Positions 10,980 to 54,897 of a stretch of DNA of 64,000 nt are shown here, piece by piece. Position 1 is the stretch's first letter. Each line of letters opens with the position of its first letter. The DNA is from Candidatus Harrisonbacteria bacterium (GTDB lineage Bacteria > Patescibacteriota > Minisyncoccia > UBA6257 > 1-14-0-10-44-23): assembly GCA_023255625.1 (NCBI GenBank), contig JAHFLF010000001.1:94255-158254 (forward strand), in the 5' to 3' direction. The notes beneath the pieces are model-generated. The model saw nothing but the letters and a program-made list of their open reading frames with translations, did not search any database and was not told where the DNA came from. Position numbers and translations under genes: made by a program.

Positions 10980-11700
10980 TTTCGTAAAGGTCAACTCGCC
11001 ATCTCCGCAAACTAGGGGCAGGAAAGCGAAGCGGGTCCGGTCAGCAAGTAGCCGACCGGACCAGAACTTCAAGAGAGTTTTAAAATCAGGTATCTCTTGA
11101 TTACCCTTGCCGGAGGTTACCGGCGATGACTGCTCCTCTGTTTGGAGTAGCAGTGCCGAGGAGACCGACGGTAGTAAGGCGTCGTCGGTCTTGTGAGCCG
11201 CGGCAGTGGATGCCGCCGCCTCATCAGAACGACCGCCTAGCCACTGCCGGCCGATGACACTGCTGCGCCATCGGCTTCTTGGTTGTCGCCTTGGGCCGAG
11301 CGACTGCAGGGCTCTGCGCAGCGGCCTTCAGTGCAGCAGCCCGCCGCTGAACCACGATCCGCCTCCTTGCCGCCAGGAAGTGATCGGCGCGACTCACGCG
11401 GACACCGAGGGCAGGACATCCACCCTCCCGATCCTGATCTGGGATGAGTCAGTCCTCATCTTCTCCGGGATGACGCCATCCGGATAGAACTGCTGGACCC
11501 GGTCCTCCATCGCCACCTCCACCGGCGGCGACTCCCGCGGATCCGCCGCTTCCAGAGCGAATCCTGCCGCGAGCGTCAGCTCGGTACGCACCCTCACGGC
11601 AGCCACACTGTCTCTCCCTCTCTTCATCGCGCATCCTCGCTTTCTTTGTATGCGCGGTTGTCCCTGCTCGCCTGCCTCCCGAAAGGCAGATCTAATCCCA
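10980..11700. other. ~700-bp high-GC (~60-65 %), hairpin-dense island with no single clean long ORF
   Basis: Composition shift relative to flanks. Several consecutive perfect hairpins, e.g. gggtccggtc..gaccggacc and gaccgacg..cgtcggtc. Overlapping short ORFs on both strands. Confidence 0.5.
11394..11627 (-). CDS. possible small high-GC ORF (77 aa) inside the GC island
   Basis: AGGA 6 nt before ATG. Codons strongly GC3-biased (GTG, GCC, CTG, GAG), unlike host genes. No motif. Confidence 0.2.
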   Translation of the reverse strand: MKRGRDSVAAVRVRTELTLAAGFALEAADPRESPPVEVAMEDRVQQFYPDGVIPEKMRTDSSQIRIGRVDVLPSVSA

Positions 11701-11858
11701 ACGAGCTTGGACGGATGCTCCGTTCTTCTAATAATTTCAAAAAAACGAAACATCCGTCCAATTAAGGACTTCAATGTGATTCAAAGAACTAAATCAGTTA
11801 TACATCTATTACTAGTTACTGTCAAATAACAGTAATATCAAATAGACGCATAACCTTT

Positions 11859-12572
11859 TTATTGTACTCCTCCATTTTCTTTTCGCCAAGCGTCAATCAA
11901 CTTGTGGTTCCCGCCTAAAAGTACTGGAGGTACTTTTAGAAGTTTGTAGTTTGTAGTTTGTAGTTTGTAGCGGATAGTTTCGGGTTTCGTAAAAACCGGG
12001 TACGAACCCTGATTCTCTTCCAATGATTCCGATTTGCCCAGCACGCCCGGAATTTGGCGCGAAACAGCATCAACAACAATTGCTGCCCCAAGCTCGCCGC
12101 CGGTAATTACATAATCTCCCAAAGAAATCTCCTCGTCAGCAACATACTGCGCCACGCGCTCGTCAACGCCCTCGTACCGGCCGCAAATAAAAATCAACTG
12201 GTCGTATTTTGCCAACCGCCGCGCCGCGGCGGCGTCAAAAACTTTCCCGCGAGTTGAGAACAAAATTACGCGGCTTTTCGTGCCCTTTGCCCTTTGCCCT
12301 TTGCCCTTCTTCGCGGCCGCTACTGCGGCCGCGATCGGCCCAAAACTCATCACCATCCCCGCCCCGCCCCCATAAGGCCGGTCATCTACTTTACGGTGTT
12401 TATCTTTTGAAAAAACCCTAATATCGTATGCCTGAATCTGTATCAATTTCTTTTCCTGCGCGCGCTTTAAAATAGACTCAGAAAAGTACGAATCCAAAAT
12501 CTTTGGAAAAATGGTAAGAATATCGAACCGGATCATGCGGGTCATACTACCCTTTTGCTCGTCTTCCGGCAA
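11859..12572 (-). CDS. trmD: tRNA (guanine37-N1)-methyltransferase TrmD, with low-complexity insert and C-terminal extension
   Basis: IRFDILTIFP...YGGGAGMVM...ICGRYEGVDERV TrmD (SPOUT) motifs. An internal ctttgcc x3 repeat encodes KGKGQRAKG. A gtttgta x4 tandem repeat (11929-11960) encodes the YKLQTTNYKLLK tail. Confidence 0.9.
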   Translation of the reverse strand: MPEDEQKGSMTRMIRFDILTIFPKILDSYFSESILKRAQEKKLIQIQAYDIRVFSKDKHRKVDDRPYGGGAGMVMSFGPIAAAVAAAKKGKGQRAKGTKSRVILFSTRGKVFDAAAARRLAKYDQLIFICGRYEGVDERVAQYVADEEISLGDYVITGGELGAAIVVDAVSRQIPGVLGKSESLEENQGSYPVFTKPETIRYKLQTTNYKLLKVPPVLLGGNHKLIDAWRKENGGVQ

Positions 12573-12771
12573 ATGCGAAAATTAAACCGATAACCCACAG
12601 TAAAGGCAAAACCAAAAATCCTAGAATGATAGTTCCGAAACCGCTACCCCAATCTTTTGGGAAAAATAATACAGCAAATAATAAAAGTATGATCGGAGCA
12701 ATTAAAAAAATCTTCGCAAGAACAGTAAAGGCATCCTTTGCTGGGTTCATCTTCGGACTATCATTCTCCAT
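12547..12771 (-). CDS. small membrane protein, hypothetical (74 aa, 2 TM)
   Basis: Hydrophobic ORF overlapping the trmD start by 26 nt. Confidence 0.35.
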   Translation of the reverse strand: MENDSPKMNPAKDAFTVLAKIFLIAPIILLLFAVLFFPKDWGSGFGTIILGFLVLPLLWVIGLIFAFAGRRAKG

Positions 12772-12801
12772 ATCTTTTTATTTTATCACAAAACCCGTTA
12801 C

Positions 12802-13029
12802 CTATAATAAATCAATAAATTCTTGAACCGTGAGCTCCGCTTGAATAATAATTGACTTGAGTGTCTTGGGCGCGAGCTCACGGTTATGATATGCAATCAC
12901 GACATGAAGATGTGGTTTGTCCAGAAACCGCAAATTGATATGACTACCTGTACGATGATGGATATAAAATCCGTAACGCAATAAGGCCGCTAAAACTTTA
13001 CGCGGAGTGCAATGTGGCAGTTTTGGCAT
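12802..13029 (-). CDS. hicA: HicA-like toxin (YcfA family mRNA interferase)
   Basis: ...PRKVLAALLRYGFYIHHRTGSHINLRF...KPHLHVVIAYHNRELAPKTLKSIIIQAEL... matches the HicA dsRBD-like fold with the conserved GSH. Start taken at M8; M1 at 13050 is also possible. Confidence 0.6.
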   Translation of the reverse strand: MPKLPHCTPRKVLAALLRYGFYIHHRTGSHINLRFLDKPHLHVVIAYHNRELAPKTLKSIIIQAELTVQEFIDLL

Positions 13030-13036
13030 GCGAAAT

Positions 13037-13294
13037 TTATACCGCAACACTAACTCTCATTTGAGCCGATTCATCTTCTTTCGGTACTTGCTCTTTGGCC
13101 TTAATGAGACCGGCGACATAACATTCAATAGCATCTTTAGCCATTATGCGCGCCTCCTCCAGAGTTCTTCCTTCGGTAACCAAGCCAGGCAAAGCAGGAA
13201 CAGTCGCTGTATATCCGTGGAGTTCGTTACGCTCAAAAAAAACGGTATACTCGTAGATATTCCGCTTTATTTTTTGTTTTCGTACAATTGCCAT
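13037..13294 (-). CDS. hicB: HicB-like antitoxin (UPF0150 / RNase H-like fold)
   Basis: YTVFFERNELHGYTATVPALPGLVTEGRTLEEARIMAKDAIECYV is the HicB N-domain signature. Immediately upstream of hicA. Confidence 0.6.
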   Translation of the reverse strand: MAIVRKQKIKRNIYEYTVFFERNELHGYTATVPALPGLVTEGRTLEEARIMAKDAIECYVAGLIKAKEQVPKEDESAQMRVSVAV

Positions 13295-13336
13295 ATTTGC
13301 ATAGTACTACAAAGCACAACGAAAATCCAACACCCG

Positions 13337-14190: not shown

Positions 14191-14195
14191 GCCAT

Positions 14196-14232
14196 GTTAC
14201 AGCGTACTAGTACGCTGTAACATGGCAACTAG
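14196..14232. repeat. 30-bp perfect palindrome TGTTACAGCGTAC-TAG-TACGCTGTAACA, copy 2 of 2
   Basis: Identical to 1303-1332. ~80 nt 3' of the rpsP stop. Confidence 0.7.
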
Positions 14233-17972: not shown

Positions 17973-17980
17973 GAATCAGT

Positions 17981-18068
17981 TAGTTTGTTAGTTAGTCCAT
18001 AGTTAGTTAGCAAAAATCGGATACATCTATTGTACTAAGTAACTAACCAACTAACAACCAACTAACCA
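17981..18068. repeat. TTAGTTAG-type inverted-repeat hairpin between smc and Cys-rich gene A
   Basis: cagttagtttgttagttagtcc...ctaaccaactaacaaccaactaaccaa. Confidence 0.55.
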
Positions 18069-18072
18069 AATC

Positions 18073-19803
18073 TCATGCCACCTCTTGCTGGTAACAGGGC
18101 TCACAGTAAACGATCTCGGGCTGTGTTGGCGCGTATGAAGTTTGAATAGGATCCTTGCACTTCTGGCACTCACGATCATAGACCTGGAGCTTGGTGCGCT
18201 GGCTAATGCGGGCAAAGTGGCGGCAGTTTGAGCAAAGCCTCGGGAGCGGCAGATTCATGCTGCGATAAAATGCGAGTTCATCAGGAAGTACGCGGAATGC
18301 AAGCGTACATTGGTCATTGCACGATCCGGCATGCTCGCAGCCAATAATATCTGCAGTAATAGCATCCGGAACGTCCTTAATATTATCCGGTAACTCACTC
18401 GCCGGCTTAGTCACTGTATAGTTGCGCTGTGCCGCATCGCGCCACGTAAAACCACTCGCTTGTGCCTGCTCTTTGGTAAGCGGAAAGTTCTCTTGTGCCA
18501 GCGTCTCGTTGTAGGCAAACGGCGAAAGCTCTGCCGGAAAATACTCGCCATATTTGTAAATCCTCCCCTGTGCATCTAGATATGGCATTGCATCCATCTG
18601 CGCCTTAATCTTTGCAACCAGCGCAACATACTCCTCTTTTGAATACTGCTTGTTTAAAATGCAGTACTCTTTTTTGCGGAGTCCAACGCAGCCAAATAAA
18701 TTTGATGAGGCCTGACACATATACGAATACTCAATGTCATGCACCTGCTCCTGCACGTTGTAGCAAAACTTGATGTTGTTGGTGCCGAGACCGCACGCAG
18801 TGCATTCATAAATCTGCTGGTTACCTGCTCCCCACGCAGTGTAGTCATAACAATCTTTGCTGGCGGGCGTCTCCTGTACATACTGACAGTAACGCAAATT
18901 CTCGCCTTCACGCACTAAAAATGAGTTGCGCACATTGCGAGAGTGGGAAATGTAATTGCCAGAAACATCGGTATTCTGCAGGCCATTAATATACTTATTG
19001 GGGAACTTCAGCCAGAACGCCCTCGCCTGCTCCCGCATAGCCTGCACGGCCGCATACGAACCAAGATTATATTCAGTAATCTTTTTCTCATACTCCTCCT
19101 TCGTATACTGCTCATTCCATATGCAGTAAGACTTTTTACGCAACCCGACGCAACCAAAACAGTTGCTTACGCCGACACAGTCTTTGGAAAATGCAATGTC
19201 GTACGAGCTCTCACATTGCGAAGAAAAAATCGCGTTGCGACACGAAGAAAGCCAAAATCCTTCATAGCATCGCTCAGACTTTTGAAGATGCGAATTATCA
19301 ACGCAATTCTTCACGCCGCCCAGCCCGTTGCCATACATGCAGTCCTCTGCGCCCTGGCCGTTGAAAGTTAAATAACAATTTTTTGGATCAGTAAAATTAT
19401 TCACATAATCACTATTCACGCCATTTACCACATTCAGATTTTTAAGCGGTACGCTGTGGAGCAATTCTTTGAACTGCTCAAAAAATGACTTTGCTTCATC
19501 AAAGTCGCGGCCATAGGTCATCGGGTCCCACAAATCAGAAAGCCAGACATCTTTTTCGTATACCTTCACGGACGAGTCGGGTGCAAAGGCAGAAAAAATA
19601 TCCTTGCCCGAATAATCACTCTTCCGTTTAAATAAAAATCGTTCATTACGAAACGCCATTCTGCGCTGTGCCCGACACAACCAACAAAACGTTGGCGGCG
19701 GCACCGAAACTTTTTTGTAAAATTCCAAATCAGCAGAATCAATAATGAAATCCTGTTTGCAGTTCTGGCAATTTCTAGTTTCCGAGGTTGTCATAGCTAC
19801 CAA
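18073..19803 (-). CDS. Cysteine-rich zinc-ribbon protein, paralog A (576 aa, unknown family)
   Basis: Many cysteines. N-terminal C-x2-C...C-x2-C (CQNCKQ...FCWLCR). Internal duplication FGCVGLRKKSYCIWNEQYTKEEYEKK / FGCVGLRKKEYCILNKQYSKEEYVAL. C-terminal CSNCRH...CQKCKD...YCEPCYQQEVA. Clearly homologous to 22898..24637. Confidence 0.65.
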   Translation of the reverse strand: MVAMTTSETRNCQNCKQDFIIDSADLEFYKKVSVPPPTFCWLCRAQRRMAFRNERFLFKRKSDYSGKDIFSAFAPDSSVKVYEKDVWLSDLWDPMTYGRDFDEAKSFFEQFKELLHSVPLKNLNVVNGVNSDYVNNFTDPKNCYLTFNGQGAEDCMYGNGLGGVKNCVDNSHLQKSERCYEGFWLSSCRNAIFSSQCESSYDIAFSKDCVGVSNCFGCVGLRKKSYCIWNEQYTKEEYEKKITEYNLGSYAAVQAMREQARAFWLKFPNKYINGLQNTDVSGNYISHSRNVRNSFLVREGENLRYCQYVQETPASKDCYDYTAWGAGNQQIYECTACGLGTNNIKFCYNVQEQVHDIEYSYMCQASSNLFGCVGLRKKEYCILNKQYSKEEYVALVAKIKAQMDAMPYLDAQGRIYKYGEYFPAELSPFAYNETLAQENFPLTKEQAQASGFTWRDAAQRNYTVTKPASELPDNIKDVPDAITADIIGCEHAGSCNDQCTLAFRVLPDELAFYRSMNLPLPRLCSNCRHFARISQRTKLQVYDRECQKCKDPIQTSYAPTQPEIVYCEPCYQQEVA

Positions 19804-22897: not shown

Positions 22898-24637
22898 TTA
22901 TGCTACCTCTTGTTGATAACATTCTATGCAATATACTTTTTCGGGCCGGTCGGGGGCGTACGAAGTTTCAAATTGATTTTGGCATTGGGTTTCACCGTGC
23001 TGGTGCGTGGCCGCTCCCGGGCACTGACACGAACGCGGCCAGAGTGTAAGAGGATTGCGTTTCGCAATGCGCTCATAATGGCGGCAGTTTGGGCAGAGCC
23101 GCGGCAATGGCAATGATGCAAGTTTATAGAGAGTCAGGTCTTCCGGCAAAATTCTGAATGCGGTCGTACACTGATGCATGCATCCGTTATGAGCACAACT
23201 TATAATTGCCTTGGTCACCTCATCGCCAGCATCTGCGGCAGAATCCGGCAACTCATCTGGCTGCATCGTAATTTTATAGTTACGCTGCGGTTCATCTCGC
23301 CAGCCATAGCCGGCCACAATAGCATCTTCTTTTGAGAGAGGGAAGAAATCGTGCCCCATTGTTTCGTTGTACACAAATGGCGACAAATCACTTGGAAAAA
23401 ATTCGCCGTACTTGTAGACAAGCCCGCGCTTATCAATATATGGCGTCGTGTCCATTTGCATTTTTATCTTTCCGACCATCGTCTCATACTCCTCTTTGGT
23501 GTATTGCTTGTTCAAAATACAGTACTGACTTTTTTTCATACCAACGCAACCAAACAAATCTTTAGATCCGTGGCAGTTCATGACATATTCGCAATCAATG
23601 ACTTGCTCCCAGCACTCATTGGCAAATTTTAAATTGGCTATTTGTCTACCACAGTTTTGAACTTCATACATACGCTCGGCCGTCGCTCCCCAATGGTTAA
23701 AATCCATTGAATCTTTTGCATCAAAAAGCGAAAGCCCGTACCGAACATTCTGAACATTACGACAGGTGAAAGAACGGGAGACATCCTGACAATGGTCAAT
23801 CCAGTTGCCGCTCACTCGCATCCCTTGGCGCACAACAAGAGCCGGGACAATGAACTGTCTTTTAAATTCATCAAATTTTTTGCGAAGCAGCTCAACGGAA
23901 CGAGCCGAATGTATATTGAGTTCAGCAATTTTTTTCTCATACTCCTCTTTAGTGTACTGTTCGTTCCATATACAGTACTGTTTATTTTTCAAATTTACGC
24001 AGCCGAAAGAATTTTGAACATTCATACAGTTCAGCAAAAACCACGAGTCCGAGCAGTTATTTGATTCTTGCGAAAAGGCAACGCTGTAGCACTGCGAACA
24101 ATCAATGCACTCATAACACCGCTCTGATTTTTGTGTGCCAAAACAATCTAAACACTCTTTTGAGGACATAATCCAGGTACTATACCGAGAGTTTTCCGCG
24201 CCGGTCGTTGCAAACACAAGATAACAATTTTTCATATCTGTTACCCGATTTGTATACTCACTATTGATACTCTGACCCTGCTTGATAATGCCCGGGCGAG
24301 GCACGGCAAGCAGCAATTCTTTGAACTGCTCGAAAAATGGCCGGGTAAAATCGTAATCGCGCGCATATGTTTTTGCATCCCACGACTCTGACCACCAGCA
24401 CGGATAGCAAAAAACAGAATGAGGGCTGTCTGGGCTGTACATCAAAATCTTTTCCTGCTTGCAAAGTCCGCATGGACGCTTAAATAGTGTTCGCTCACTA
24501 CGCCAAATAAATCGCCGGAGCAGCCGGCACTGCGGACAAAATGTCGGCTCGGGTACTTTAAGCATGGTTAAAAACTCCGTGTCCTCCGCGGTAATTTCAA
24601 ACTGCTGCTTGCACTGCTGACAATTTTTTGCTGCCAT
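22898..24637 (-). CDS. Cysteine-rich zinc-ribbon protein, paralog B (579 aa)
   Basis: Same architecture as 18073..19803 (~45 % identity by eye). Internal duplicate FGCVNLKNKQYCIWNEQYTKEEYEKK / FGCVGMKKSQYCILNKQYTKEEYETM. Extra N-terminal CGLCKQ...CYPC ribbon. C-terminal ...YCIECYQQEVA. Confidence 0.65.
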   Translation of the reverse strand: MAAKNCQQCKQQFEITAEDTEFLTMLKVPEPTFCPQCRLLRRFIWRSERTLFKRPCGLCKQEKILMYSPDSPHSVFCYPCWWSESWDAKTYARDYDFTRPFFEQFKELLLAVPRPGIIKQGQSINSEYTNRVTDMKNCYLVFATTGAENSRYSTWIMSSKECLDCFGTQKSERCYECIDCSQCYSVAFSQESNNCSDSWFLLNCMNVQNSFGCVNLKNKQYCIWNEQYTKEEYEKKIAELNIHSARSVELLRKKFDEFKRQFIVPALVVRQGMRVSGNWIDHCQDVSRSFTCRNVQNVRYGLSLFDAKDSMDFNHWGATAERMYEVQNCGRQIANLKFANECWEQVIDCEYVMNCHGSKDLFGCVGMKKSQYCILNKQYTKEEYETMVGKIKMQMDTTPYIDKRGLVYKYGEFFPSDLSPFVYNETMGHDFFPLSKEDAIVAGYGWRDEPQRNYKITMQPDELPDSAADAGDEVTKAIISCAHNGCMHQCTTAFRILPEDLTLYKLASLPLPRLCPNCRHYERIAKRNPLTLWPRSCQCPGAATHQHGETQCQNQFETSYAPDRPEKVYCIECYQQEVA

Positions 24638-41453: not shown

Positions 41454-41561
41454 AAAAATTGACTTTAAAATCGAACGGGCCCGACTGGCAACATACTCCC
41501 TTGCGGGAGACGCCAATCGGGCCTCGTTTTGTGCTGCGCGTGGTAGTGGAGCTCTACCGCG

Positions 41562-42044
41562 CTACTTCTTCTTCTCGAGCGCCCTGGCCTCGAACTGCTG
41601 GTCAGGGAGTCCGGCTTCGACATAGAAGACCGGATAGCGAGCCGTCTCGAAGACGGAGTTCTCGCCCAGGATGGCTCCACCATCCTCGAGCATGATGCGG
41701 AACTTCCGCTTGCACACTCGTTTGCCGATCTCCTGCACATCCTCGATCGTGTACGAGAGACCGGCCGCTACCTCTACACGAGCCCACTGCCCGGGTTGCA
41801 GCGGGAAAGCCGCAACGGCTCCCGGGAACGCCAGCGTGTACTCCCCTCCGTCGAGATTCGGAGGTACGCTCTTCACAGCGCTGGGCCGCCAGGAGACCAG
41901 CACTGCAATTCCGGCTCCAAGAAGGAGTAGGGTGATCGCGGCGGCCAGCCCCATGAAAAGCTTCGTCCGCCCGAAACTGGCCACGCTCACGCAATCCTCC
42001 ACATCATCGGGTGCATCTGCGGAGTTGGCAGGATTGCTACTCAT
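41562..42044 (-). CDS. small membrane protein, possible NfeD-like partner of the SPFH protein (160 aa), high-GC
   Basis: N-terminal TM. 4-nt overlap with the upstream SPFH gene (translational coupling). Function is inferred from the pairing only. Confidence 0.35.
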   Translation of the reverse strand: MSSNPANSADAPDDVEDCVSVASFGRTKLFMGLAAAITLLLLGAGIAVLVSWRPSAVKSVPPNLDGGEYTLAFPGAVAAFPLQPGQWARVEVAAGLSYTIEDVQEIGKRVCKRKFRIMLEDGGAILGENSVFETARYPVFYVEAGLPDQQFEARALEKKK

Positions 42045-43294
42045 GTTGTCGAACCTCCAGTCGGCACAGACAGACCGCCGGCCGTCAGACCGGCGGCAAG
42101 CCGCGCCGCCGCCGAGACCGATCCATCGTCAGCTACGACAACTTTCAGATCTGCCACCTTGATGCCTGCCTGCGCAAGCGCGCCGGCATAGGCAAGATTC
42201 GCCGTGACACCAAGCTTGACAGCACTCTCCGTCATCGCCGTGACACCAGGAGCCGTCTGCTCCGCAGCTTTGGCATCCTGTTGCGACTTCAACACCTTCT
42301 GCGCATACTCGATGCTCTTAGGGTCATACACCACCCCGATGAGCTCGCAGTTGTCGAAGGTGCATCCGATGTGCAGCTCGTGGTGTGACAGAGCGGTTTC
42401 AGAAATCCCGCCCTGATTGAACAGCACATTCATCTGATCCAGCGCTGCACGTACTGCAACTGCGTGCTTGCCGTACCAGACAAGCACATTGCCAGGCAGA
42501 ATCTCAACGAGTGACTGTCCGGCGGCAACACCCTCAACTCTTCGCCGGAATGCCGCGTCCTTGTGCAACGGAATGTGCAGTGACAACTCCGACTCGACGA
42601 ACAGCGCAAGCGCATGCCTGTTCTCGTCAAGATCCTTGCGGCTCATCTTCGCAAGCATCGACGTCAGGAGCCCCTTGATGGGACCCCTGATACCGACCTC
42701 CACGTGATGCGCGGCAAAGTTCCTCTGCCTCCTCTTCGCACCCTCGATCACCCAGTTGCCGTAGACGTTCAACCCATCCGAGTCAGCGATACGCGGGTCC
42801 GGGCAGACGGTCACCTGGAAGGTGACTTTGACAACTTCATGAGTCGTGAGCTGCTGTTCCACCTCGATCGTTATCGGCAACGGATTTGTCTCGATCTGAG
42901 CCATCCTGTTACCGATCCCGACCTTGTGCAGGCCAGGCCCGTGTGTCGCAGAGCGGATCTTGCCGCCACTGCTCTGAACCGCATACGATCGTCCACCGAC
43001 TGAACGGACGAACATAGCGAGCCAGAACCAGAGAACGCCAAGATAGGCGGCACCCAGACCCACGATGACCATGCCGAAAATGGCGCAGCTCATCCAGATG
43101 AATCCGCACAAGATCGAGACCAGAGCAATCGCGTAGGCGATACCCAAGCCCTGGAAATGCGGAGTCAACTCTCTCTTGAGGAAAGGCTCAATCTCCTCCC
43201 CCTCAAGAACCGTGCAGGTCACGAAAGCGTGCCCCGCCGGTGCAACTGTTGTCCCGGGCGATACTACCGCCGGGGGCGCAACATGACTAGTCAT
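42041..43294 (-). CDS. SPFH/Band-7 (flotillin/stomatin-like) membrane protein, high-GC
   Basis: GGGAGG 5 nt before ATG (MTSHVAPP...). TM helices, then ...VKVTFQVTVCPDPRIADSDGLNVYGNWVIEG...IRGPIKGLLTSMLAKMSRKDLDENRHALALFVESEL... SPFH-domain pattern, Ala-rich C-terminus. Confidence 0.6.
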   Translation of the reverse strand: MTSHVAPPAVVSPGTTVAPAGHAFVTCTVLEGEEIEPFLKRELTPHFQGLGIAYAIALVSILCGFIWMSCAIFGMVIVGLGAAYLGVLWFWLAMFVRSVGGRSYAVQSSGGKIRSATHGPGLHKVGIGNRMAQIETNPLPITIEVEQQLTTHEVVKVTFQVTVCPDPRIADSDGLNVYGNWVIEGAKRRQRNFAAHHVEVGIRGPIKGLLTSMLAKMSRKDLDENRHALALFVESELSLHIPLHKDAAFRRRVEGVAAGQSLVEILPGNVLVWYGKHAVAVRAALDQMNVLFNQGGISETALSHHELHIGCTFDNCELIGVVYDPKSIEYAQKVLKSQQDAKAAEQTAPGVTAMTESAVKLGVTANLAYAGALAQAGIKVADLKVVVADDGSVSAAARLAAGLTAGGLSVPTGGSTT

Positions 43295-43422
43295 CGCTAC
43301 CTCCCAGCCCGTAGAACGGGCCGTCGTTAGAAACCAACGGCCCAAACCGGGCCAGCCACGCCGTACGCCAGCGTTGGCCCTATTCGACTGTCCCATGCAG
43401 GCCCCACACGAGGCCAACATTG

Positions 43423-43480
43423 CACGAACAGGATTTTTGCGGACCAGATAAAATGCCCCGCAAAAATCCTGTTCGTGCCC
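43423..43480. repeat. 21-bp perfect palindrome
   Basis: gcacgaacaggatttttgcgg accagataaaatgcc ccgcaaaaatcctgttcgtgc. Confidence 0.6.
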
Positions 43481-43745
43481 TTGAACGCTCTTTAGTTTTC
43501 AAAGTACATTCGGAAAATTCCTGTTTTAGACAGAACTCCCCACCAACAGCATATTTAGCATATTTTCATACCATTTGTCAATCTTTTCCATCGCCAGTTC
43601 AACAAACCGGGTTAGCATTTAACCAATGCGAAGTCCGTACCATAGGGAGCAGTAAAAGGTATCCCTGCTCATCTTGGCGGGAACTCTGGGTTTGCGGGTC
43701 TTTATATTTATCCAACAGCTCAACTATACACAGCCCCGCTATACC

Positions 43746-44352: not shown

Positions 44353-44402
44353 AATTCCCAATACCATAAATCTACCATGGTAGATTTATGGTATTGGGAA
44401 TT
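44353..44402. promoter_or_regulatory. 50-bp perfect palindrome centred on CCATGG (site 1)
   Basis: aattcccaataccataaatctaccatggtagatttatggtattgggaatt. Shares core ataccata..tctaccatggtaga..tatggtat with 45056-45087. Confidence 0.55.
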
Positions 44403-44430
44403 CTGTTATCTTGAGACCACATCCCTTCCG

Positions 44431-45045
44431 CTAAATCTTAACCTGGAGATTCTTGCCTGGAAATCGCAGTGTGCCAGATTTCGTTATTTCAAAAATATCA
44501 ACATACTGAGTTAAATTGGCTTCGGCGAGATCATCAATAAAACTCTCCGGTATCTGTCGTTTACCGATAAAAAGACTTCGCTGCAAAAATCGAAAACCAA
44601 ACTGACCAAGAGCACCCCTCAACCAATCGCGCTGTTGCCGCATCGTATGTGGAATATCATACGCAATAATAGTGACGCGATCGCTGGGCGTAGCAACATA
44701 TTTTTTTGCGCGTACGATATCAGAAAGATCATTTTCATGCTCATGGACCCAAGTTTTCCCTGCCTGCGTCATACTATAATGAGCTTCACGACCAATTCTG
44801 GTACTCTTAATAAGTCCGTCTTGCTTTAATGCTTGAATCAACCGTTGCGCGCGTTTCCATTCAAGTCGTTTTTGATGCTCATCAAAATGCTTCTTGTCAT
44901 ACTGCTGGCGAACCTGTTGCGCCGCCGCAAAACCCGCCCGAATCCCCCTCTGACGACCAAAGCCGCCACCAATCAAAAAGGATGCTATCTCTGCACTGGT
45001 ACGACCGACATCTGACAAAAAATATAAAATCTGTTTTCTCTTCAT
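44431..45045 (-). CDS. winged-HTH + Cas2-like (VapD/PaaX-C-like) domain protein, putative regulator (204 aa)
   Basis: C-terminal ...VTIIAYDIPHTMRQQRDWLRGALGQFGFRFLQRSLFIGK... resembles the Cas2/PaaX_C ferredoxin-like fold pattern (YD....RR..LR..L...G.R.Q.S.F). Assignment is tentative. Confidence 0.4.
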   Translation of the reverse strand: MKRKQILYFLSDVGRTSAEIASFLIGGGFGRQRGIRAGFAAAQQVRQQYDKKHFDEHQKRLEWKRAQRLIQALKQDGLIKSTRIGREAHYSMTQAGKTWVHEHENDLSDIVRAKKYVATPSDRVTIIAYDIPHTMRQQRDWLRGALGQFGFRFLQRSLFIGKRQIPESFIDDLAEANLTQYVDIFEITKSGTLRFPGKNLQVKI

Positions 45046-45055
45046 GCGTACATAA

Positions 45056-45087
45056 TACCATATTTCTACCATGGTAGAAATATGGTA
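45056..45087. promoter_or_regulatory. 32-bp perfect palindrome centred on CCATGG (site 2), ~11 nt upstream of the start of the 44431..45045 gene
   Basis: taccatatttctaccatggtagaaatatggta. The aa..tt versus tt..aa swaps relative to site 1 preserve dyad symmetry. Confidence 0.55.
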
Positions 45088-46048: not shown

Positions 46049-46072
46049 CCTGTAAGTATAAACTAGATGTTT

Positions 46073-46195
46073 CGTAAAACATATTCGGGTCAGCGCTAGC
46101 GGCAATTCTCGGACCGCGACGGCGGGAGAGTATAGACCGATTTTTCACCAGAAAAATACGGACGGTGCCGTCTGCGCTGACCCGAATATGTTTTA
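46073..46195. repeat. Hairpin-core element copy 2 (inside a 20-bp perfect palindrome)
   Basis: gtaaaacatattcgggtcagcgc [tagcggcaattctcggaccgcgacggcgggagagtatagaccgatttttcaccagaaaaatacggacggtgccgtct] gcgctgacccgaatatgttttac. Confidence 0.7.
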
Positions 46196-46936
46196 CCTTA
46201 TTTCAATCACCGCCGGATCCGGATGAAATTCCAACTCCTCGTCTGAATACACAATCAGCGGGGCAAGCTCAACGCGCGCCGACTCTCCTGCCCCAATAAT
46301 CCACATCTCATGAGCCATATTGTGCGAATCATTATGTGCCTGCATCCCCCGCTGTATTCTGTGTCTCTGATATTGCTTAAGCCGTAGCTCACACCAATTC
46401 CCAATTCGCCCGCCAAGAAACGCTTCAAAAAACTTTTTCATTTTCGAATCGCGCGACGGATCATAACGCAGATCAGATTCCAAAATCCTTTTACCGACCC
46501 AATCAGAGTTTGCATCATAAAACTCCTGAATATTTTCGCGCATTCCATACACCGGCACTAATCGCTTGTACAATAACTTCCAGTACGGATTAACCGGTAA
46601 CCGCAGGCGGTATGACGCCTCGGTGACAAAGTGATTAAGGCAAACCTTGTTCGCCGCCGCCGCATTACCGTGCTCTTTCGCCCGTCGCCAGCCAAAAAGT
46701 CCCAGTGCGAGCGCCGCACAAAATCGGGCTGTAAAAATCCGGCCGGTGCGCACGCCAATCAACACATCAAAATCACTTTCTTCATCAACATTACCAACGG
46801 CCAGCGAGCCGCTGCCAAAGACAAATTCTATAAACGGAATATGCCGAAAAATCCAGGTGCGCTTAATAAACAGATGCCATTTTTTATCGTTTAGTAATTG
46901 CTGAACTCGGAACTCTCTGTTCTTTTCCTCTGTCAT
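46193..46936 (-). CDS. Nucleotidyltransferase (Pol-beta superfamily) domain protein
   Basis: FGSGSLAVGNVDEESDFDVLIGV is the GS-x9-13-D.D nucleotidyltransferase motif. Start at MTEEKNREF. Confidence 0.55.
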   Translation of the reverse strand: MTEEKNREFRVQQLLNDKKWHLFIKRTWIFRHIPFIEFVFGSGSLAVGNVDEESDFDVLIGVRTGRIFTARFCAALALGLFGWRRAKEHGNAAAANKVCLNHFVTEASYRLRLPVNPYWKLLYKRLVPVYGMRENIQEFYDANSDWVGKRILESDLRYDPSRDSKMKKFFEAFLGGRIGNWCELRLKQYQRHRIQRGMQAHNDSHNMAHEMWIIGAGESARVELAPLIVYSDEELEFHPDPAVIEIR

Positions 46937-50204: not shown

Positions 50205-50460
50205 ATAACATGGGGATAGGGATTAGAGGTTGCTAGATGCTGCTAGAGGTTGATAGGTAAACTTAGAGGAAACTAGCTTGGCGCGGCCCGAGTACGGGCC
50301 GCGGCGGTTTCGTTCTAACCCGAACCCCTTGCTAGCATCCTCTAGCAGCATCTAGCACCCTCTAGCAGCCTCTAGCAGCCTCTAGCAGCCTCTAGCAGCC
50401 TCTAGCAGCCTCTAGCAGCCTCTAGCAGCATCTAGCAGCATCTAGCCCCGTTGACTTTAT
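50205..50460. repeat. Tandem array: ~13 direct copies of 10-bp unit CTCTAGCAGC (50338-50455), mirrored by 3-4 inverted copies (50212-50245) across a GC hairpin (50281-50306)
   Basis: ...ctctagcagcatctagcaccctctagcagcctctagcagcctctagcagc...; upstream gctagatgctgctagaggttg; centre gcggcccgagtacgggccgc. In the divergent region between gpmI and the 50525 gene. Confidence 0.8.
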
Positions 50461-50524: not shown

Positions 50525-51163
50525 GTGCTGGGATTCATCTGGGTCGTACTCATCGTTATCTGTTTCGCGGCGGCCATTTATCTCGGCGAATGCACCAGGT
50601 ATGACAGGAAACATGGCGTAGGTGACGGGATCATCAACGAGAGACTGTCCTTCTTCTTTGGGATCCTCTGTTTCCTGATGTGCTTCGCACCACTTCTGTT
50701 CGAGTTCGTGCCCTTCTCGGGAAAGGGCAGCTATGTCGTCGCGGTCAGAAACGACGGCAGCTACACCAAGTACCCGTACGGCTGCTGGGAGTGGACGGAT
50801 GGAGAGCTCTACACAGTGTGGAGTCCTCTACCTGAATCCAGAGAGATCCTGCTAAATCCGGACGATCCGGGCACCAAGCTCCCATACTCCGTCACTCTGA
50901 AGATATCGGATCCGGGCATCTACTTCAACCAGAAGGAAATGGATTGGAAGAAGAAGCAAGCGCTTTTCCACTTCTTCCTGGTCCAGCTCGAGCAGCCGGG
51001 TTGGGAACATGACTTCCGGGAGTTCACCGATCCGGCCAACCAGGAGCAGCAGCGCCGCTTCGTGGAACTCGTCCTGCCCTGGCTCAACCAGCGTCTGGCC
51101 AAGTACGGCCTGGGCGCTACGGACGCCTCGTTCGCGGCTCGAACAACGCCGCCAAAGGACTAG
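50525..51163 (+). CDS. hypothetical membrane protein, high-GC (212 aa)
   Basis: GGAAAGGAG then GTG start. Two TM helices. GC3-biased codons. Confidence 0.5.
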   Translation: MLGFIWVVLIVICFAAAIYLGECTRYDRKHGVGDGIINERLSFFFGILCFLMCFAPLLFEFVPFSGKGSYVVAVRNDGSYTKYPYGCWEWTDGELYTVWSPLPESREILLNPDDPGTKLPYSVTLKISDPGIYFNQKEMDWKKKQALFHFFLVQLEQPGWEHDFREFTDPANQEQQRRFVELVLPWLNQRLAKYGLGATDASFAARTTPPKD

Positions 51164-51267
51164 CGATCTAGTCCTTGCTGCCGCGGGTTGGCGAAAGCCA
51201 ACCCGCGGCACATCTTTTTTATACTAAAAATTAACCAGCCGTCACCGCTCAATACAGCTCTATTTAG

Positions 51268-51370
51268 CGGAACAGCCGGGATTTTTATTCCTGGGGACTC
51301 TCACAGGCCGACGGGCCGAGAGCGAGGGTGAATTTTCTCCAGAAAATTACACCTGTGCCCCAGGAATAAA
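51268..51370. repeat. Hairpin-core element copy 3 (inside a ~20-bp palindrome)
   Basis: ccgggatttttattcctggggac [tctcacaggccgacgggccgagagcgagggtgaattttctccagaaaattacacct] gtgccccaggaataaaaatcccgg. Confidence 0.7.
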
Positions 51371-51527
51371 AATCCCGGGCACTCCGTTAACCTATTGACC
51401 TATAACGGCTCTCTACCGTATACTTCTAGTGAGACTTTTCTCACTTTACTATCTAATGTATTTCTGTTCCCTAAAAATTTCATGATCGAGATCGTGGTTG
51501 TGAAGAACATACGGGACATCTACTCAT

Positions 51528-53066
51528 ATGGAATTTCTGACCAACCCCTTTGTCTGGGTATTTTTAGTCTTATTTTTAGTCTTCGGTATCGCGGCCGGTT
51601 ACTACTTCCGCCACTCGCGCGGAGCTAAGAACGCCGGATCAGTCGAGCAGCAAACACAAGCCAAACTCGCCGAAGCGCAAAAGCAGGCCGAGCATTTTGT
51701 CGCTGACGCAAAATTAAAAGCCGCCGAGCAAATCAGCGAGGGGCAAAAACAAGAACGCGAACGGAAACAAAAATTAGACCAGCTTGAAGAGCGACTTTTA
51801 AAACGCGAAGAGTCTTTGCAGGCGCAACTGCTAAATCTGACTACCAGAGAGACGAAGTTCAACGAAGAAATTAAAAAGGTAGAACAGGTCAAAGAGCAGG
51901 CCGAGCTCGCCTACGCTAAGGCAACTGCTCACCTCGAGCAGATTACCGGCATGAAGCAGGAGGATGCCAAGGCCATGATCATTAAGGATGTTACCGAGAA
52001 GTACAAGGGCGATCTGGTTACCAGTATCCAAAAAGTTGAACACGAGCGACGCGACGAGATTGAAAAGAAGGCCTCGGAGATTATTACCACCGCGCTGATG
52101 CGTTATGCACGCAGCCAAGTCGCCGATGTTACTACCAGTGTCTTCCATCTGCCGAGCGAGGACATCAAGGGTAAAATTATCGGCCGTGAAGGGCGCAATA
52201 TTAAAGCACTGGAGCGAGCAACCGGAGTGGAAATTGTCATTGACGAAGCGCCGGAATCAATCATCCTCTCTTCTTTTGATCCGCTGCGCCGTGAAATCGC
52301 CCGCATGACGCTCGAGCGGATGATTAAAGACGGCCGCATCCAGCCGGCGCGCATCGAAGAAACTGTCGAACAATGTAAAACTGAACTCATCCGCCGCATG
52401 CAGGAAATTGGTGAACAGGCCACGCTCGAGGTCGGCATCGCCGGCTTTCCGAAAGAAATTCTGCAGCTGCTCGGCCGGCTACACTTCCGCACTAGCTACG
52501 GACAAAATGTGCTGATGCACTCTTTGGAGATGGCGCACATCGCCGGTATGATTGCCCGCGAACTCGGCTGCAATGTTGATATTGCCAAAAAAGGTGCGCT
52601 CGTCCACGACATCGGCAAGGCCATCAGTCATGAAGTCGAGGGTACGCATGTGGAACTTGGCCGGAAAATTCTGGCGAAATACGGCGTGGAGCAAGCGGTA
52701 ATCACCGCAATGGAAAGCCACCACGAGGACTACCCGTTTACCAGCCCGGAGGCCTACATTGTTACGGCGGCCGATATTCTTTCTGCAGCCCGCCCTGGCG
52801 CTCGCCGAGATACCGTCGAACAGTACATAAAACGGCTGAAAGACCTGGAGGAGATCACCAGCAAGTTTGCGGGCGTGAAACAGGCCTACGCTCTTTCTGC
52901 CGGCCGTGAGGTGCGCGTCTTTGTTGTACCGGAAAAAATTGACGACTTTGCCGCACTGCAAATGGCCCGCGATATTGCCAGCCGTATCCAAACCGAGATG
53001 AAGTATCCGGGTGAGATTAAAGTAAATGTTATCCGCGAGACCCGGGCGGTGGAATACGCGCGATAG
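51528..53066 (+). CDS. rny: Ribonuclease Y
   Basis: N-terminal TM, coiled-coil, KH domain (...KGKIIGREGRNIKALE...), HD domain (...HSLEMAHIAGMIA...HDIGK...). Confidence 0.92.
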   Translation: MEFLTNPFVWVFLVLFLVFGIAAGYYFRHSRGAKNAGSVEQQTQAKLAEAQKQAEHFVADAKLKAAEQISEGQKQERERKQKLDQLEERLLKREESLQAQLLNLTTRETKFNEEIKKVEQVKEQAELAYAKATAHLEQITGMKQEDAKAMIIKDVTEKYKGDLVTSIQKVEHERRDEIEKKASEIITTALMRYARSQVADVTTSVFHLPSEDIKGKIIGREGRNIKALERATGVEIVIDEAPESIILSSFDPLRREIARMTLERMIKDGRIQPARIEETVEQCKTELIRRMQEIGEQATLEVGIAGFPKEILQLLGRLHFRTSYGQNVLMHSLEMAHIAGMIARELGCNVDIAKKGALVHDIGKAISHEVEGTHVELGRKILAKYGVEQAVITAMESHHEDYPFTSPEAYIVTAADILSAARPGARRDTVEQYIKRLKDLEEITSKFAGVKQAYALSAGREVRVFVVPEKIDDFAALQMARDIASRIQTEMKYPGEIKVNVIRETRAVEYAR

Positions 53067-53067
53067 G

Positions 53068-53165
53068 AATTTAGTTAGTTGGTTAATTAGTTAGCTGGTT
53101 AGTTGGTAGAAACGAAATTCCAGTCTCGCTAACTAACAAACTAACTAGCTAACCAACTAACCAAT
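53068..53165. repeat. TTAGTTAG-type inverted-repeat hairpin downstream of rny
   Basis: tagttagttggttaattagttagctggttagttgg ... cgctaactaacaaactaactagctaaccaactaacc. Confidence 0.55.
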
Positions 53166-53542: not shown

Positions 53543-53557
53543 TGTGGTATACTAAAT
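53543..53557 (+). promoter_or_regulatory. promoter-like tgtggtatactaaat motif
   Basis: 15-mer identical to 43746-43760. Confidence 0.3.
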
Positions 53558-53628
53558 ATCAGTCAGGGGCCCGTTCTGTGAGGGAACGGGTTTTTGATTT
53601 CCAGACAGATTTGATATACAATTTCTAT

Positions 53629-53829
53629 ATGGCCATTACAACCGCAACTAAAAAGTTTTTCAAAGTTACTCTGATTGTGATCGTCGTGTTCGGCATGCTC
53701 GCAATCTACCTGGCCCCGCTTTTTAGCGGCGGCGTACAGCAGCGAGTACAGCAGCAGCCGGTCGACTTCACCGGCCCCACCGGTGCGCCCTTCGTAAATG
53801 GCCCGTCGGCTCCCCCGCCGGGAAAATAG
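53629..53829 (+). CDS. small membrane protein, hypothetical (66 aa from MAITTATKKFF)
   Basis: One TM helix, Gln/Pro-rich tail. Confidence 0.35.
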   Translation: MAITTATKKFFKVTLIVIVVFGMLAIYLAPLFSGGVQQRVQQQPVDFTGPTGAPFVNGPSAPPPGK

Positions 53830-53918
53830 TCAGTTAGTTAGTTGACGGTTAGTCGGTTAGTTAGTAAGCACCGGCAAACCTTGCAGTTGAGGATATATCT
53901 GGTAGAATAATCTGCATT

Positions 53919-53989
53919 GCGGAGTTCGTATAGTGGTAATACACCTCGTTGCCAACGAGGAGCGACGGGTTCGATTCCCGTACTTCGCT
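53919..53989 (+). tRNA. tRNA-Gly (anticodon GCC)
   Basis: GCGGAGT TC GTAT AGTGGTA ATAC A CCTCG TTGCCAA CGAGG AGCG ACGGG TTCGATT CCCGT ACTTCGC T. Confidence 0.8.
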
Positions 53990-54082
53990 CACTTCTTCGC
54001 CCTTGGTAGGGCTACGAAGTGCAAGCACTTCAGAAAAATAGTGTTTGTACTTCAAATAATATAACTACAACAGCGAAGAGAA

Positions 54083-54328
54083 GTGTCCTTCGAAGCTTTA
54101 TGCGAAGAAGGACGAATGGTAAACCCTCTTTTGCTTATTGGTTCTACTCCTGATATCAAAACAAGATTAGCGTCACACAACTCCGGAGCCAACAAGCATA
54201 CGAGTAAATTCAGGCCGTGGAAAATTGTATGGGTATGCGGATTTTTGAGCAAAGAAAAAGCATTTTCATTTGAGATGTATCTAAAAACCGCATCGGGAAT
54301 AGCATTCCGTAGAAAACGCCTTCTTTAA
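54083..54328 (+). CDS. GIY-YIG nuclease family protein (UPF0213-like, 81 aa)
   Basis: ...LLLIGSTPDIKTRLASHNSGANKHTSKFRPWKIVWV...FEMYLKTASGIAFRRKRL. Second GIY-YIG in the window, ~90 nt after tRNA-Gly. Confidence 0.55.
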   Translation: MSFEALCEEGRMVNPLLLIGSTPDIKTRLASHNSGANKHTSKFRPWKIVWVCGFLSKEKAFSFEMYLKTASGIAFRRKRLL

Positions 54329-54414
54329 AAAACACAGTCCCCAACACGACCATGTCGCGTCAGGGACTAGGCTGGGGCGGCTGGGGCGCCCCGAGGATCG
54401 AGAGCTGCTAGCTG

Positions 54415-54897
54415 CTAGGGCAAAGTCATCAATGCTTTCCCCAGAATCGCGAGCTTCACGCACTCCGGCAGGACGAAGACATTGTGGTTCTGGCCGATCG
54501 CGTCGACAGTCCCCAGAGTGGCTCTGCGCCAACGCGGGTCCCACTCCTTCAGACCGCGCTTCTTCCGACACAGCTCGGCGGCCCTCCTGGTTCGGAAGAG
54601 CGCCACGATGTCGGTAGTGCGCCCCCGAAGCATGGAACTGTTCATCTGCCAGAACTGACGACCGTACTTCGTCTGCGGGTAGAAGAGAACCAGACCGCCG
54701 ATCTGTCCACCTCCGCCGATCCCGACCATCGAACCACCCACAAATTGGTGGCCGACCTTCATACTGGCCTTGGCCCTTCCGGCAACCTTCTTCACGGTTG
54801 GGTCGCCAAATTCATTGATGGCGTCGGACATCAGGTAGACCGACCCGGAGCATGTCACTGCGAACAGACGCTTTAGCTGCTGCTTTGGGCTCTTCAT
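54415..54897 (-). CDS. hypothetical protein, high-GC (160 aa)
   Basis: GC-rich island with GC3-biased codons. No motif. Confidence 0.4.
   Translation of the reverse strand: MKSPKQQLKRLFAVTCSGSVYLMSDAINEFGDPTVKKVAGRAKASMKVGHQFVGGSMVGIGGGGQIGGLVLFYPQTKYGRQFWQMNSSMLRGRTTDIVALFRTRRAAELCRKKRGLKEWDPRWRRATLGTVDAIGQNHNVFVLPECVKLAILGKALMTLP

Follow-up and report, generated by a model that had tools for sequence, protein, structure and literature searches.

What is the origin of DNA islands whose GC content departs abruptly from that of the genome around them? The question is raised by a stretch of 64,000 nucleotides, hereafter the window, from a Candidatus Harrisonbacteria bacterium (assembly GCA_023255625.1, contig JAHFLF010000001.1, positions 94,255 to 158,254 of the forward strand), which contains seven such GC-rich islands. 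An earlier interpretation made from the letters alone (the sequence-only reading) had explained them by repeated acquisition from a donor of high GC content, the obvious candidate being an actinobacterial host should the organism be an epibiont like the Saccharibacteria. The analysis described here favours another answer, to which we assign a rough probability of 0.55: the islands would be lineage-wide accessory cassettes, GC-rich and led by Shine-Dalgarno (SD) sequences, found in fixed slots whose contents related Parcubacteria exchange with one another.

Composition and coding character of the islands

The GC content of the window is 48.3%, or about 47% once the islands are removed, slightly above the ~46% that had been assumed for the genome. 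A 400-nt GC profile peaked at all seven sites, with values of 0.62-0.67 at 11000-11800 (island 1), 0.55-0.57 at 24800-25400 (island 2), 0.62-0.64 at 27200-27800 (island 3), 0.54-0.61 at 33600-34800 (island 4), 0.56-0.635 at 41400-43600 (island 5), 0.57-0.59 at 50800-51400 (island 6) and 0.605 at 54400-54800 (island 7). The islands were called by log-odds segmentation (maximal-scoring segments), using as null 20 first-order Markov simulations, in which the segment maxima were 9-15. All seven were recovered as discrete maximal GC-rich segments with scores of 15-67, in agreement with the sequence-only reading: 11104-11681 (island 1, score 38), 24835-25325 (island 2, score 15), 27222-27816 (island 3, score 37), 34053-34715 (island 4, score 22), 41476-43415 (island 5, score 67), 50977-51209 (island 6, score 16) and 54339-54871 (island 7, score 23). 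Three more, weak segments were obtained, one of which (1360-1520) is a copy of a ~145-nt structured repeat described below.

With scores of 15 and 16, close to the null maxima, islands 2 and 6 are marginal by bulk GC content. They are clearly set apart by the GC content of third codon positions (GC3), which is 0.66 and 0.76, respectively, the mean of the core genes being 0.495 (standard deviation 0.063). The GC3 z-scores of the island genes ranged from 1.7 to 5.3. When genes were pooled, GC content at the first, second and third codon positions was 0.61, 0.44 and 0.71 in the island genes, and 0.55, 0.38 and 0.505 in the 52 core genes. GC content determined by codon phase displayed a three-base periodicity in one frame per island (0.42/0.58/0.90 in island 3, 0.38/0.65/0.88 in island 1). 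This periodicity, found in the listed open reading frames (ORFs), indicates that the islands are coding sequence.

Codon choice differs accordingly between the two gene sets: AAG makes up 0.91 of the Lys codons in island genes versus 0.35 in core genes, TTC 0.85 versus 0.25 of the Phe codons, and ATC 0.72 versus 0.30 of the Ile codons. In Actinobacteria GC3 lies above 0.9 and the Arg codons AGG and AGA (AGR) are rare. The island genes had been credited with Actinobacteria-like codon choice, and they are indeed GC3-biased, yet their GC3 reaches only 0.71, and since 40% of their Arg codons are AGR, the codon profile is not actinobacterial. The composition of the islands implies a donor GC content of about 55-65%.

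Island slots in related genomes

The genes flanking the islands are ordinary housekeeping genes (rplJ-rplL, trmD and those for RNase III, NusB, bL32, DnaE, ThrRS, GyrA, iPGM, RmuC and RNase Y), together with genes for a XerC-like recombinase, for pilins of the type IV secretion system type and for a LamG-domain type IV pilin. Among species representatives, the nearest have a ThrRS that is ~67% identical, and those with a descriptive label are called Paceibacteria, Liptonbacteria, Nomurabacteria and Harrisonbacteria. The labels 'Saccharibacteria' and 'Gammaproteobacteria' that also occur among the relatives come from one automated series of metagenome-assembled genomes with the same kind of contig. 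Because bL32 is usually missing from Saccharibacteria (PMC9297842), the bL32 gene of the window argues against that group. The genome is Parcubacteria/Paceibacteria-like and not demonstrably that of a Saccharibacterium, so that the premise of a Saccharibacteria-like epibiont is not supported; the hosts of most Parcubacteria are unknown (PMC9297842).

In the closest genome found (L006/L168, GCA_964549935.1, 52% GC) DnaE is 85%, GyrA 87% and iPGM 76% identical to the proteins encoded in the window. ThrRS (31833-33581) is only 67% identical, as against 85-87% for DnaE and GyrA, and its gene may have been replaced in one lineage. A similar distance separates the window from L163 (a Logan assembly with 45% GC; iPGM 73%, RmuC 80%).

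The gene order in L163 is the same as here: XerC, a 240-aa gene, RmuC, iPGM, an orthologue of the island 6 gene, and RNase Y. The orthologue is 35-38% identical and has a GC content of 0.60 and a GC3 of 0.84, its neighbours having GC3 values of 0.39-0.53; between the two genomes the neighbours of this slot are 73-80% identical. The island is absent from the corresponding slot of L168, L082, L083, L084, L097 and L098, where the gap between iPGM and RNase Y measures 150-280 nt, versus 1333 nt here. In L166 a member of the island 6 family, with an SD but ordinary GC content, has secY and adk as its neighbours within the ribosomal-protein operon.

The island 5 slot of L006/L168, which follows the pilin genes, is occupied by two overlapping minus-sense genes coding for 610 and 182 aa (GC 0.63 and 0.64, GC3 0.79 and 0.74, respectively). 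Of their products, the one of 182 aa shares 30% identity (E = 2e-6) with that of i5a, one of the two genes of island 5, and the 610-aa protein has no detectable similarity to the product of the other, i5b. The L32/DnaE and ThrRS/MBL gaps of L006, which correspond to islands 3 and 4, also contain small genes in a similar layout, those in the ThrRS/MBL gap being anti-sense to the flanks; their similarity to the island genes was undetectable. GC-rich islets were found 3' of ThrRS in L006, L008, L012 and L041, and in L022 in the gap separating L32 from DnaE (GC content 0.61, that of the genome being 37%). The GC-rich stretches 3' of ThrRS had no DNA similarity to one another; in seven loci the possibility that they encode known RNAs (RNase P, tmRNA, SRP and others) was rejected by Rfam searches. 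In L007 the homologue of the 579-aa gene adjoining island 2 lies 99 nt from the RNase III gene, with no island in between.

The slots compared were those of islands 2 to 6, island 2 in L007 only. The corresponding slot of a sister species thus holds a diverged GC-rich SD-led homologue, an unrelated GC-rich SD-led cassette, or nothing. The synteny comparison bears out that the islands are insertions in a conserved core backbone, the gap being short in six relatives. It does not bear out that they were acquired recently: the GC-rich homologues that share a slot are only 30-38% identical, and their neighbours 73-87%. At 73-87% amino acid identity synonymous sites should be saturated, and high GC3 shared across saturated sites could then not be the unameliorated relic of a single recent import. 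Either high GC3 has been maintained, or the slots have been refilled from a GC-rich pool.

Shine-Dalgarno sequences and the structure of the cassettes

Ten island genes were counted; where necessary they are named after their island (i1a in island 1, i4a-c in island 4, i5a and i5b in island 5). An SD of at least 6 nt at the right distance precedes nine of the ten, whereas an SD of at least 5 nt was found for only two of the 52 core genes, both doubtful (Fisher p = 2.6e-8; the chance expectation is 10-16% even in GC-rich sequence). The strong AGGAGG-type ribosome-binding sites that had been reported for the islands are therefore present and, moreover, island-specific. The upstream regions of the core genes are AT-rich, and in 14 of 52 a -10-like box (often TATACT) ends 4-10 nt before the start codon; no island gene has such a box, and at a control offset three core genes had one. 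Boxes so close to the start codon suggest leaderless or very short-leader mRNAs, which may be common among the core genes of the lineage.

Of five GC-rich genes called in the island 4 and island 5 slots of L168, four carry AGGAG, AGGAGGT, AAGGAGG or GGAGG, and the core genes have SD matches of 4 nt at most. All eight genes of the island 6 family in L162-L167, including the L166 member of ordinary GC content, are preceded by an SD-like match of 4-7 nt. SD-led GC3-rich ORFs also occur within the GC-rich islets of L041 (GC3 0.90), L037, L015 and L012. Since the SD has been kept across very diverged genes, it is probably used.

The anti-SD motif of 16S rRNA is reported to be missing in about half of the Parcubacteria (Tsurumaki et al. 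2022, PMC9297842). The core genes here and in the relatives (L168, L163 and L166) have no SD, which fits SD-independent general initiation; a minority class of strongly SD-led genes in such genomes is, in contrast, not described there.

The order of elements read from the sequence is a promoter (TTGACx-17-TAxxxT), a leader (often with a hairpin), an SD, one to three coding sequences, and a GC-rich stem-loop usually followed by a T-run. The coding sequences overlap or abut in islands 1, 4 and 5. The GC enrichment has abrupt limits, the promoter on one side and the terminator T-run on the other; in island 6 and its L163 orthologue the GC-rich zone extends from the SD site to the terminator stem. 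By these predicted signals the islands are autonomous accessory cassettes, each with its own promoter, leader, SD, coding sequence and terminator, and form a class distinct from the core genome.

A further step, which we propose only tentatively and regard as rather doubtful, is that Parcubacteria of this clade run two initiation regimes, one for an SD-less and often leaderless core and the other for an SD-dependent GC-rich accessory class. What keeps the accessory class, a conserved minority of the genes, distinct over the long term would be its separate control as a regulon, or else its membership of a shared mobile pool with 'standard bacterial' signals. If the 16S rRNA of this organism were without anti-SD, the SD-led genes would be a paradox requiring a new initiation mechanism. 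For the ribosomes of the Candidate Phyla Radiation (CPR), the split between core and accessory genes offers a direct test of whether, and for which genes, SD pairing still works in those Parcubacteria that are reported to have lost the anti-SD.

Search for homologues and donors

In a collection of 15 billion proteins nine of the ten island proteins fell into clusters of one or two, every member coming from this genome. The longer, 459-aa form of i5b matched only itself among 5.8 billion proteins, and a profile built from i5a and its one relative matched just those two. Pfam, NCBIfam, PHROGs and PADLOC gave nothing beyond a sub-threshold Band_7 match of i5b, and no match was found in IMG/VR (pattern scans) or in INPHARED and PLSDB (tblastn). 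A family was obtained for island 6 only; it comprises 27 proteins at E <= 1e-3 (HMMER, 1.84 billion representatives), most of them 200-230 aa long and 24-39% identical, and all contexts retrieved for it were Patescibacteria-like.

Detectable homologues thus exist for two of the seven islands only (5 and 6). No actinobacterial, phage or plasmid relative of any island protein was found in these searches, and the best hits, which acquisition from Actinobacteria would have placed there, were confined to Patescibacteria. For islands 5 and 6 the sole homologues belong to related Patescibacteria, occupy the same gap and are equally GC-rich, which is the outcome that the sequence-only reading had itself named as refuting its donor.

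Probable traces of insertion at the island edges

Island 2 is bracketed by a 63-nt direct repeat, of which one copy (25402-25464) lies 5' of the island gene, in its own leader, and the other (24729-24791, 78% identical) in the 5' leader of the next gene, which encodes 579 aa (22898-24637). Next to island 3 a putative scar was found at the start of dnaE (28079-28186, plus strand), consisting of a pseudo-start, a 56-nt GC-rich insert and the real start. The first 26 nt of dnaE occur here twice, 82 nt apart, as ATGTCCAAGTTCGTACATTTACATAC (28079) and ATGAGTAAGTTCGTTCATTTACATAC (28161), both encoding MSKFVHLH(T). The upstream copy has a native AT-rich context and opens an upstream ORF of 29 codons, whose TAA (28166-28168) overlaps the real dnaE ATG (28161); this arrangement suggests that DnaE may be translated by termination-reinitiation coupling. 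The two copies differ by a switch between Ser codon families (TCC and AGT), which is hard to reach by drift. The flank duplications are probably pieces brought in with related donor DNA through recombination anchored in the flanks. No other island had flanking repeats: only island 2 is bracketed, and the dnaE duplication adjoins island 3.

No integrase, structural or replication gene, adjacent tRNA target or transposase was found beside any island. The sole tyrosine recombinase, the XerC-like gene near island 5, belongs to the conserved core in relatives.

At 50312-50449 a tandem array of 10-nt units, CTAGCAGCCT, reaches to within 2 nt of the -35 box (TTGACT, 50451) in the predicted island 6 promoter, and units partly complementary to it lie at 50219-50277. 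In L001, a second assembly of this strain (99.9% identical), the array is shorter by four units, a difference that could reflect either a phase-variable promoter context or collapse in short-read assembly. At the upstream edge of island 4 (34823-34846) there is a 24-nt piece resembling the 5' end of the gene for the 579-aa protein and of its 576-aa paralogue.

Genes and products of the islands

Five of the ten island proteins have transmembrane-like N-terminal segments, and most are ORFans. The description of the products as mostly membrane-anchored or unknown therefore stands for the second part, and for the first in half of the cases. The products are small proteins, for which a role in the cell envelope is likeliest.

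Island 1 had been described as packed with hairpins and devoid of a clean ORF. It does contain one: i1a (11394-11627, minus strand) encodes a soluble ORFan of 77 aa with very strong GC3 periodicity, an ATG start and a weak SD (GAGGA). The gene is annotated in three assemblies, and its product forms a protein cluster of two without a family match. A doubtful second ORF, i1b (11224-11397, minus strand), for an Arg/Ala-rich polypeptide of 57 aa, has weak codon periodicity and no SD; its GTG start overlaps the i1a stop (GTGA). The ORFs are followed on their 3' side by a GC-rich, hairpin-rich untranslated tail of 255 nt (10976-11230, minus strand) with a minimum free energy of -106 kcal/mol, as compared with a mean of -78 for shuffled sequences (standard deviation 4.8, z = -5.8). 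Of the two proposals for island 1, a structured RNA or a decayed gene, the first is thus supported as far as the tail is concerned, but a coding ORF precedes it and no Rfam family applies. The tail had no Rfam match at E <= 1, and the island none at the gathering score, so that the scan of 10980-11700 revealed no known RNA family, as the motif search of the sequence-only reading had found. The Rfam matches at E <= 1 around island 1 were an L10 leader outside it and microRNA-type hairpins at 11696-11779, the hairpin of its upper edge. A blastn search of the island against plasmids gave no match.

The probable L10 leader, 5' of rplJ (10832-10975, minus strand), matches RF00557 over its full length with 39.5 bits (gathering 44, E = 1.2e-4), and forms the lower border of island 1, not a part of it. 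Upstream of this leader are trmD and island 1, not rplK/rplA; Parcubacteria without uL1 overlap the group without anti-SD (PMC9297842).

The genes of islands 2, 3 and 7 are all on the minus strand. The island 2 gene (24876-25349) encodes a soluble ORFan of 157 aa (cluster of one) and has the SD GAGGTGG; a candidate promoter, TTGACA-17-TAATCT, is located at about 25500-25470, and a GC hairpin follows the stop codon. In island 3 the gene (27294-27776, SD CAGGAGG, GC3 0.83) codes for an ORFan of 160 aa (cluster of two) with an N-terminal membrane anchor (transmembrane-like residues 1-28), and two GC-rich hairpins follow its stop. The island 7 gene (54415-54897, SD AGGAGGTG, GC3 0.76), whose product is a soluble ORFan of 160 aa (cluster of one), ends in a terminator composed of a hairpin and a T-run.

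Island 4 (33690-34741, minus strand) is a three-gene operon with GC3 values of 0.60-0.70. The first gene, i4c (34343-34741), encodes 132 aa with a membrane anchor and is followed by i4b (33970-34329, 119 aa) and i4a (33690-34001, 103 aa), both also on the minus strand. The SDs of the operon are AAGGAGG, AGGAGGGAGGAG and AGGAGG; the predicted promoter is TTGACT-17-TATTCT at 34813-34785, and a terminator hairpin lies near 33610-33650. None of the island 1 and island 4 proteins was recognized as part of a toxin-antitoxin or defence module in Pfam, NCBIfam or PADLOC.

Island 5 contains two genes on the minus strand. The first, i5b (42041-43294, SD GGGAGG), encodes 417 aa, or 459 aa if translation starts at the upstream ATG at 43420, with two transmembrane segments. 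The second, i5a (41562-42044, SD GGAGG, GC3 0.73), overlaps i5b by 4 nt, and is followed by a nested hairpin and a TTTT terminator. Its product of 160 aa has a single transmembrane segment and, C-terminally, a domain of about 100 aa.

These two genes had been taken for an SPFH pair. The overlapping two-gene arrangement is there, but the SPFH label of i5b (42041-43420) depends on a Pfam Band_7 (PF01145) match below threshold (19.0 bits versus a cut-off of 23.6, E = 1.5e-3). A phmmer search of i5b against PDB found no SPFH chain, and the single-sequence model (pLDDT 43.5; no homologues were available for an alignment) was too poor for a fold search. We consider i5b possibly SPFH-like. For i5a (41562-42044) no Pfam family was found at E <= 0.1 that would make it an NfeD partner, and the 4-nt overlap fits co-translation only, not an NfeD partnership.

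The better SPFH candidate is the product of the island 6 gene (50525-51163, plus strand, SD AAGGAG), a protein of 212 aa with transmembrane-like segments at residues 1-26 and 36-66 followed by the predicted SPFH-fold domain. Its AF2 model, made from an alignment of 22 sequences, had a pLDDT of 87.8, and the top 33 PDB matches obtained with Foldseek were all SPFH (best E = 1.9e-3, probability 1.0, TM-score about 0.4). The structural neighbours were prohibitin, stomatin, HflK/C and flotillin, and viral SPFH proteins to E = 1e-4. At the sequence level the protein had no Pfam match at E <= 0.1, and thus did not reach the PF01145 gathering score, and the family profile found no SPFH chain in PDB. 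The model predicts that the protein has the SPFH fold and that the island 6 group is a compact SPFH-fold family absent from Pfam. The idea that i5b and the island 6 protein are distant paralogues was rejected, as hhalign found no link.

Origin of the cassettes

Exchange among relatives would proceed as follows. Recombination between related Parcubacteria, with the conserved flanks as anchors, would replace or swap the contents of the slots, sometimes leaving diverged duplicates of flank sequence behind, and the GC-rich SD-led signature would be the mark of a circulating accessory pool and not of recent import from an actinobacterial host. Several points weigh against this explanation. Without any transfer, biased gene conversion or selection could keep GC3 high where the genes stand. 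The analysis identified neither a vehicle nor a recombinase or donor genome for the cassettes, and since no island protein has a homologue above ~40% identity, the exchange must be old or the pool unsampled. Five islands are without a detectable homologue, and the judgement that a slot has unrelated content derives from non-similarity, which extreme divergence also produces. Both flank duplications could stem from another mechanism, e.g. replication slippage. Some six relatives of reasonable closeness were compared, over stretches no more than 10 kb from two anchor genes. Finally, neither the window nor the 169 loci retrieved contain a 16S rRNA gene, and the usability of the SD is deduced from sequence.

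The alternative that the island genes are native, vertically inherited and fast-evolving, their GC content being upheld in place by GC-biased gene conversion or by selection on the transcript, seems to us unlikely, though it deserves serious consideration. It would explain why same-slot orthologues keep high GC3 despite 30-38% protein identity, why no search found a donor, and why the untranslated parts of the cassettes are also GC-rich, as a regional or transcript-wide force would make them; the SD-led L166 member of ordinary GC content likewise suggests that GC tracks lineage rather than family. Vertical descent does not, however, account for empty slots in equally distant relatives, for unrelated content in one slot, for the family copy between secY and adk, or for the flank duplications, and the GC enrichment stops sharply at the promoter and the T-run, without tailing into the flanks. 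The islands might also derive, as morons or remnants, from mobile elements such as GC-rich phages or plasmids that infect the lineage and are absent from the databases. They are small self-contained ORFan units with a strong SD and their own promoter and terminator, SPFH-fold proteins are known in phages and giant viruses, and one insertion (L166) lies inside a ribosomal-protein operon. We nevertheless judge such an origin improbable: PHROG, IMG/VR, INPHARED and PLSDB gave no match, no structural, integrase or replication genes adjoin the islands, and the nearby XerC-like gene is conserved in relatives.

A repeated and recent influx from outside the lineage, with an actinobacterial host as the most obvious high-GC donor, would make sense of GC content, codon use, SD sites and GC-rich terminators that are all unlike those of the resident genes, and of the evidence for insertion (63-nt repeat, gap sizes, dnaE duplication). 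It is made very improbable by the lack of any non-Patescibacteria homologue among 5.8 to 15 billion proteins, phages, plasmids and family libraries. Moreover, GC3 of 0.71, 40% AGR and an implied donor GC of about 55-65% are unlike Actinobacteria, the organism is Parcubacteria-like, and high GC is common to the islands of sister species. Assembly chimeras or contaminant reads from a high-GC organism can practically be dismissed: nothing more than the abrupt shifts in composition speaks for them, whereas identical proteins are encoded on NCBI, Logan and ENA contigs of up to 601,890 bp, the independent contig L001 spans islands 6 and 7 at 99.9% identity, and relatives show the same pattern.

Atypical GC content, which is routinely taken as a sign of recent foreign DNA, gives here both the wrong donor and the wrong timescale: corresponding gaps bear the GC-rich signature in species whose synonymous sites should be saturated. 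The cassettes also suggest that, in a genome otherwise static and streamlined, it is small envelope proteins that change fast.

Other elements in the window

An intergenic structured repeat of ~145 nt occurs at 38393-38537, 46065-46211 and 51256-51400 on the plus strand and at 61108-61253 on the minus strand, with a weaker copy at 1339-1485 (plus); one copy is directly downstream of island 6. Its outer stem varies between copies yet stays complementary, and encloses two conserved hairpins; among the four copies there are compensatory changes in 11 of 29 predicted pairs. The repeat had no match in Rfam, and a covariance model made from the four copies gave weaker matches in L041 (20-113) and L023 (13518-13583). 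Intergenic runs of 8-nt repeats of the GTTAGTTAG / CTAACTAAC type are found at 5859-5957, 17979-18055, 27107-27156, 34875-34918, 53066-53164 and 53827-53868; they put stop codons in several frames and are often present as inverted pairs between convergent or divergent genes. A 33-nt palindromic sequence (core TGTTACAGCGTACTAGTACGCTGTAACA) has two intergenic copies, 97% identical and 12.9 kb apart (1300-1332 and 14195-14227).

A gene of normal GC content with a PaaX_M (Cas2-like) domain (44431-45072) adjoins tRNA-Leu. Inverted repeats of 34 nt (44362-44395 and 45054-45087, 88% complementary) bracket the gene, beside it lies a perfect 50-nt palindrome (44353-44402), and no PaaX_M gene was called in the matching slot of L168. 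Possibly the region (44353-45087) is another sort of small insertion, one that is not GC-rich. Upstream of trmD there is an accessory module with a GC content of 0.39-0.41, made up of a gene for a HicA toxin (12802-13050) and, at 12547-12771, a small partner ORF; unlike the GC-rich cassettes, this module shows the AT-rich bias that is usual. The paralogous genes for 576 aa (18073-19803) and 579 aa (22898-24637) encode no Pfam domain and contain internal repeated segments ~460 nt apart.

Comparison with known systems

The SPFH or Band 7 scaffolds (stomatin, prohibitin, flotillin, HflK/C, QmcA-YbbJ) are matched by the island 6 protein in its predicted two N-terminal transmembrane helices, alpha/beta domain and long C-terminal helix, and by i5b in its sub-threshold Band_7 similarity and the small membrane partner gene overlapping it by 4 nt. 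The island 6 protein differs from them in its length of ~210 aa, shorter than typical, in TM-scores of only about 0.4 and in having no sequence-level match. Unlike in SPFH-NfeD operons, the partner of i5b has no NfeD signature and is placed downstream, not upstream.

Integron cassettes were considered and rejected, as there is no intI and no shared attC-like imperfect palindrome at the island ends. The island units are like them in being small and, presumably, mobile, with one or few genes of unknown function, and unlike them in having promoters and terminators of their own and in being scattered, not arrayed.

In bacterial pangenomes accessory genes are concentrated in few conserved intergenic slots, known as genomic islets or hot spots. 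The islands resemble these as insertions among syntenic housekeeping genes, with slots whose content differs, or which are empty, depending on the species. In contrast to them, the cassettes are only 0.5-2 kb long with one to three genes, have no integrase, tRNA or transposase, are GC-rich instead of AT-rich, and use another initiation signal than the core. Bacterial ORFans, as Daubin and Ochman reportedly described them in 2004, are short, fast-evolving, lineage-restricted and usually AT-rich. The island genes are likewise short, form clusters of one or two, belong to no family and, where they have a homologue, differ from it extremely, but they are GC-rich (GC3 0.71 versus 0.505 in the core), the reverse of the usual bias.

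Full-text literature searches found no description of such a cassette class in CPR bacteria. Accessory islets at hot spots and ORFans are already known. What is unusual in the islands is the GC-rich direction of the bias, its persistence across species, and its tight link to an initiation signal that the core genes do not use.

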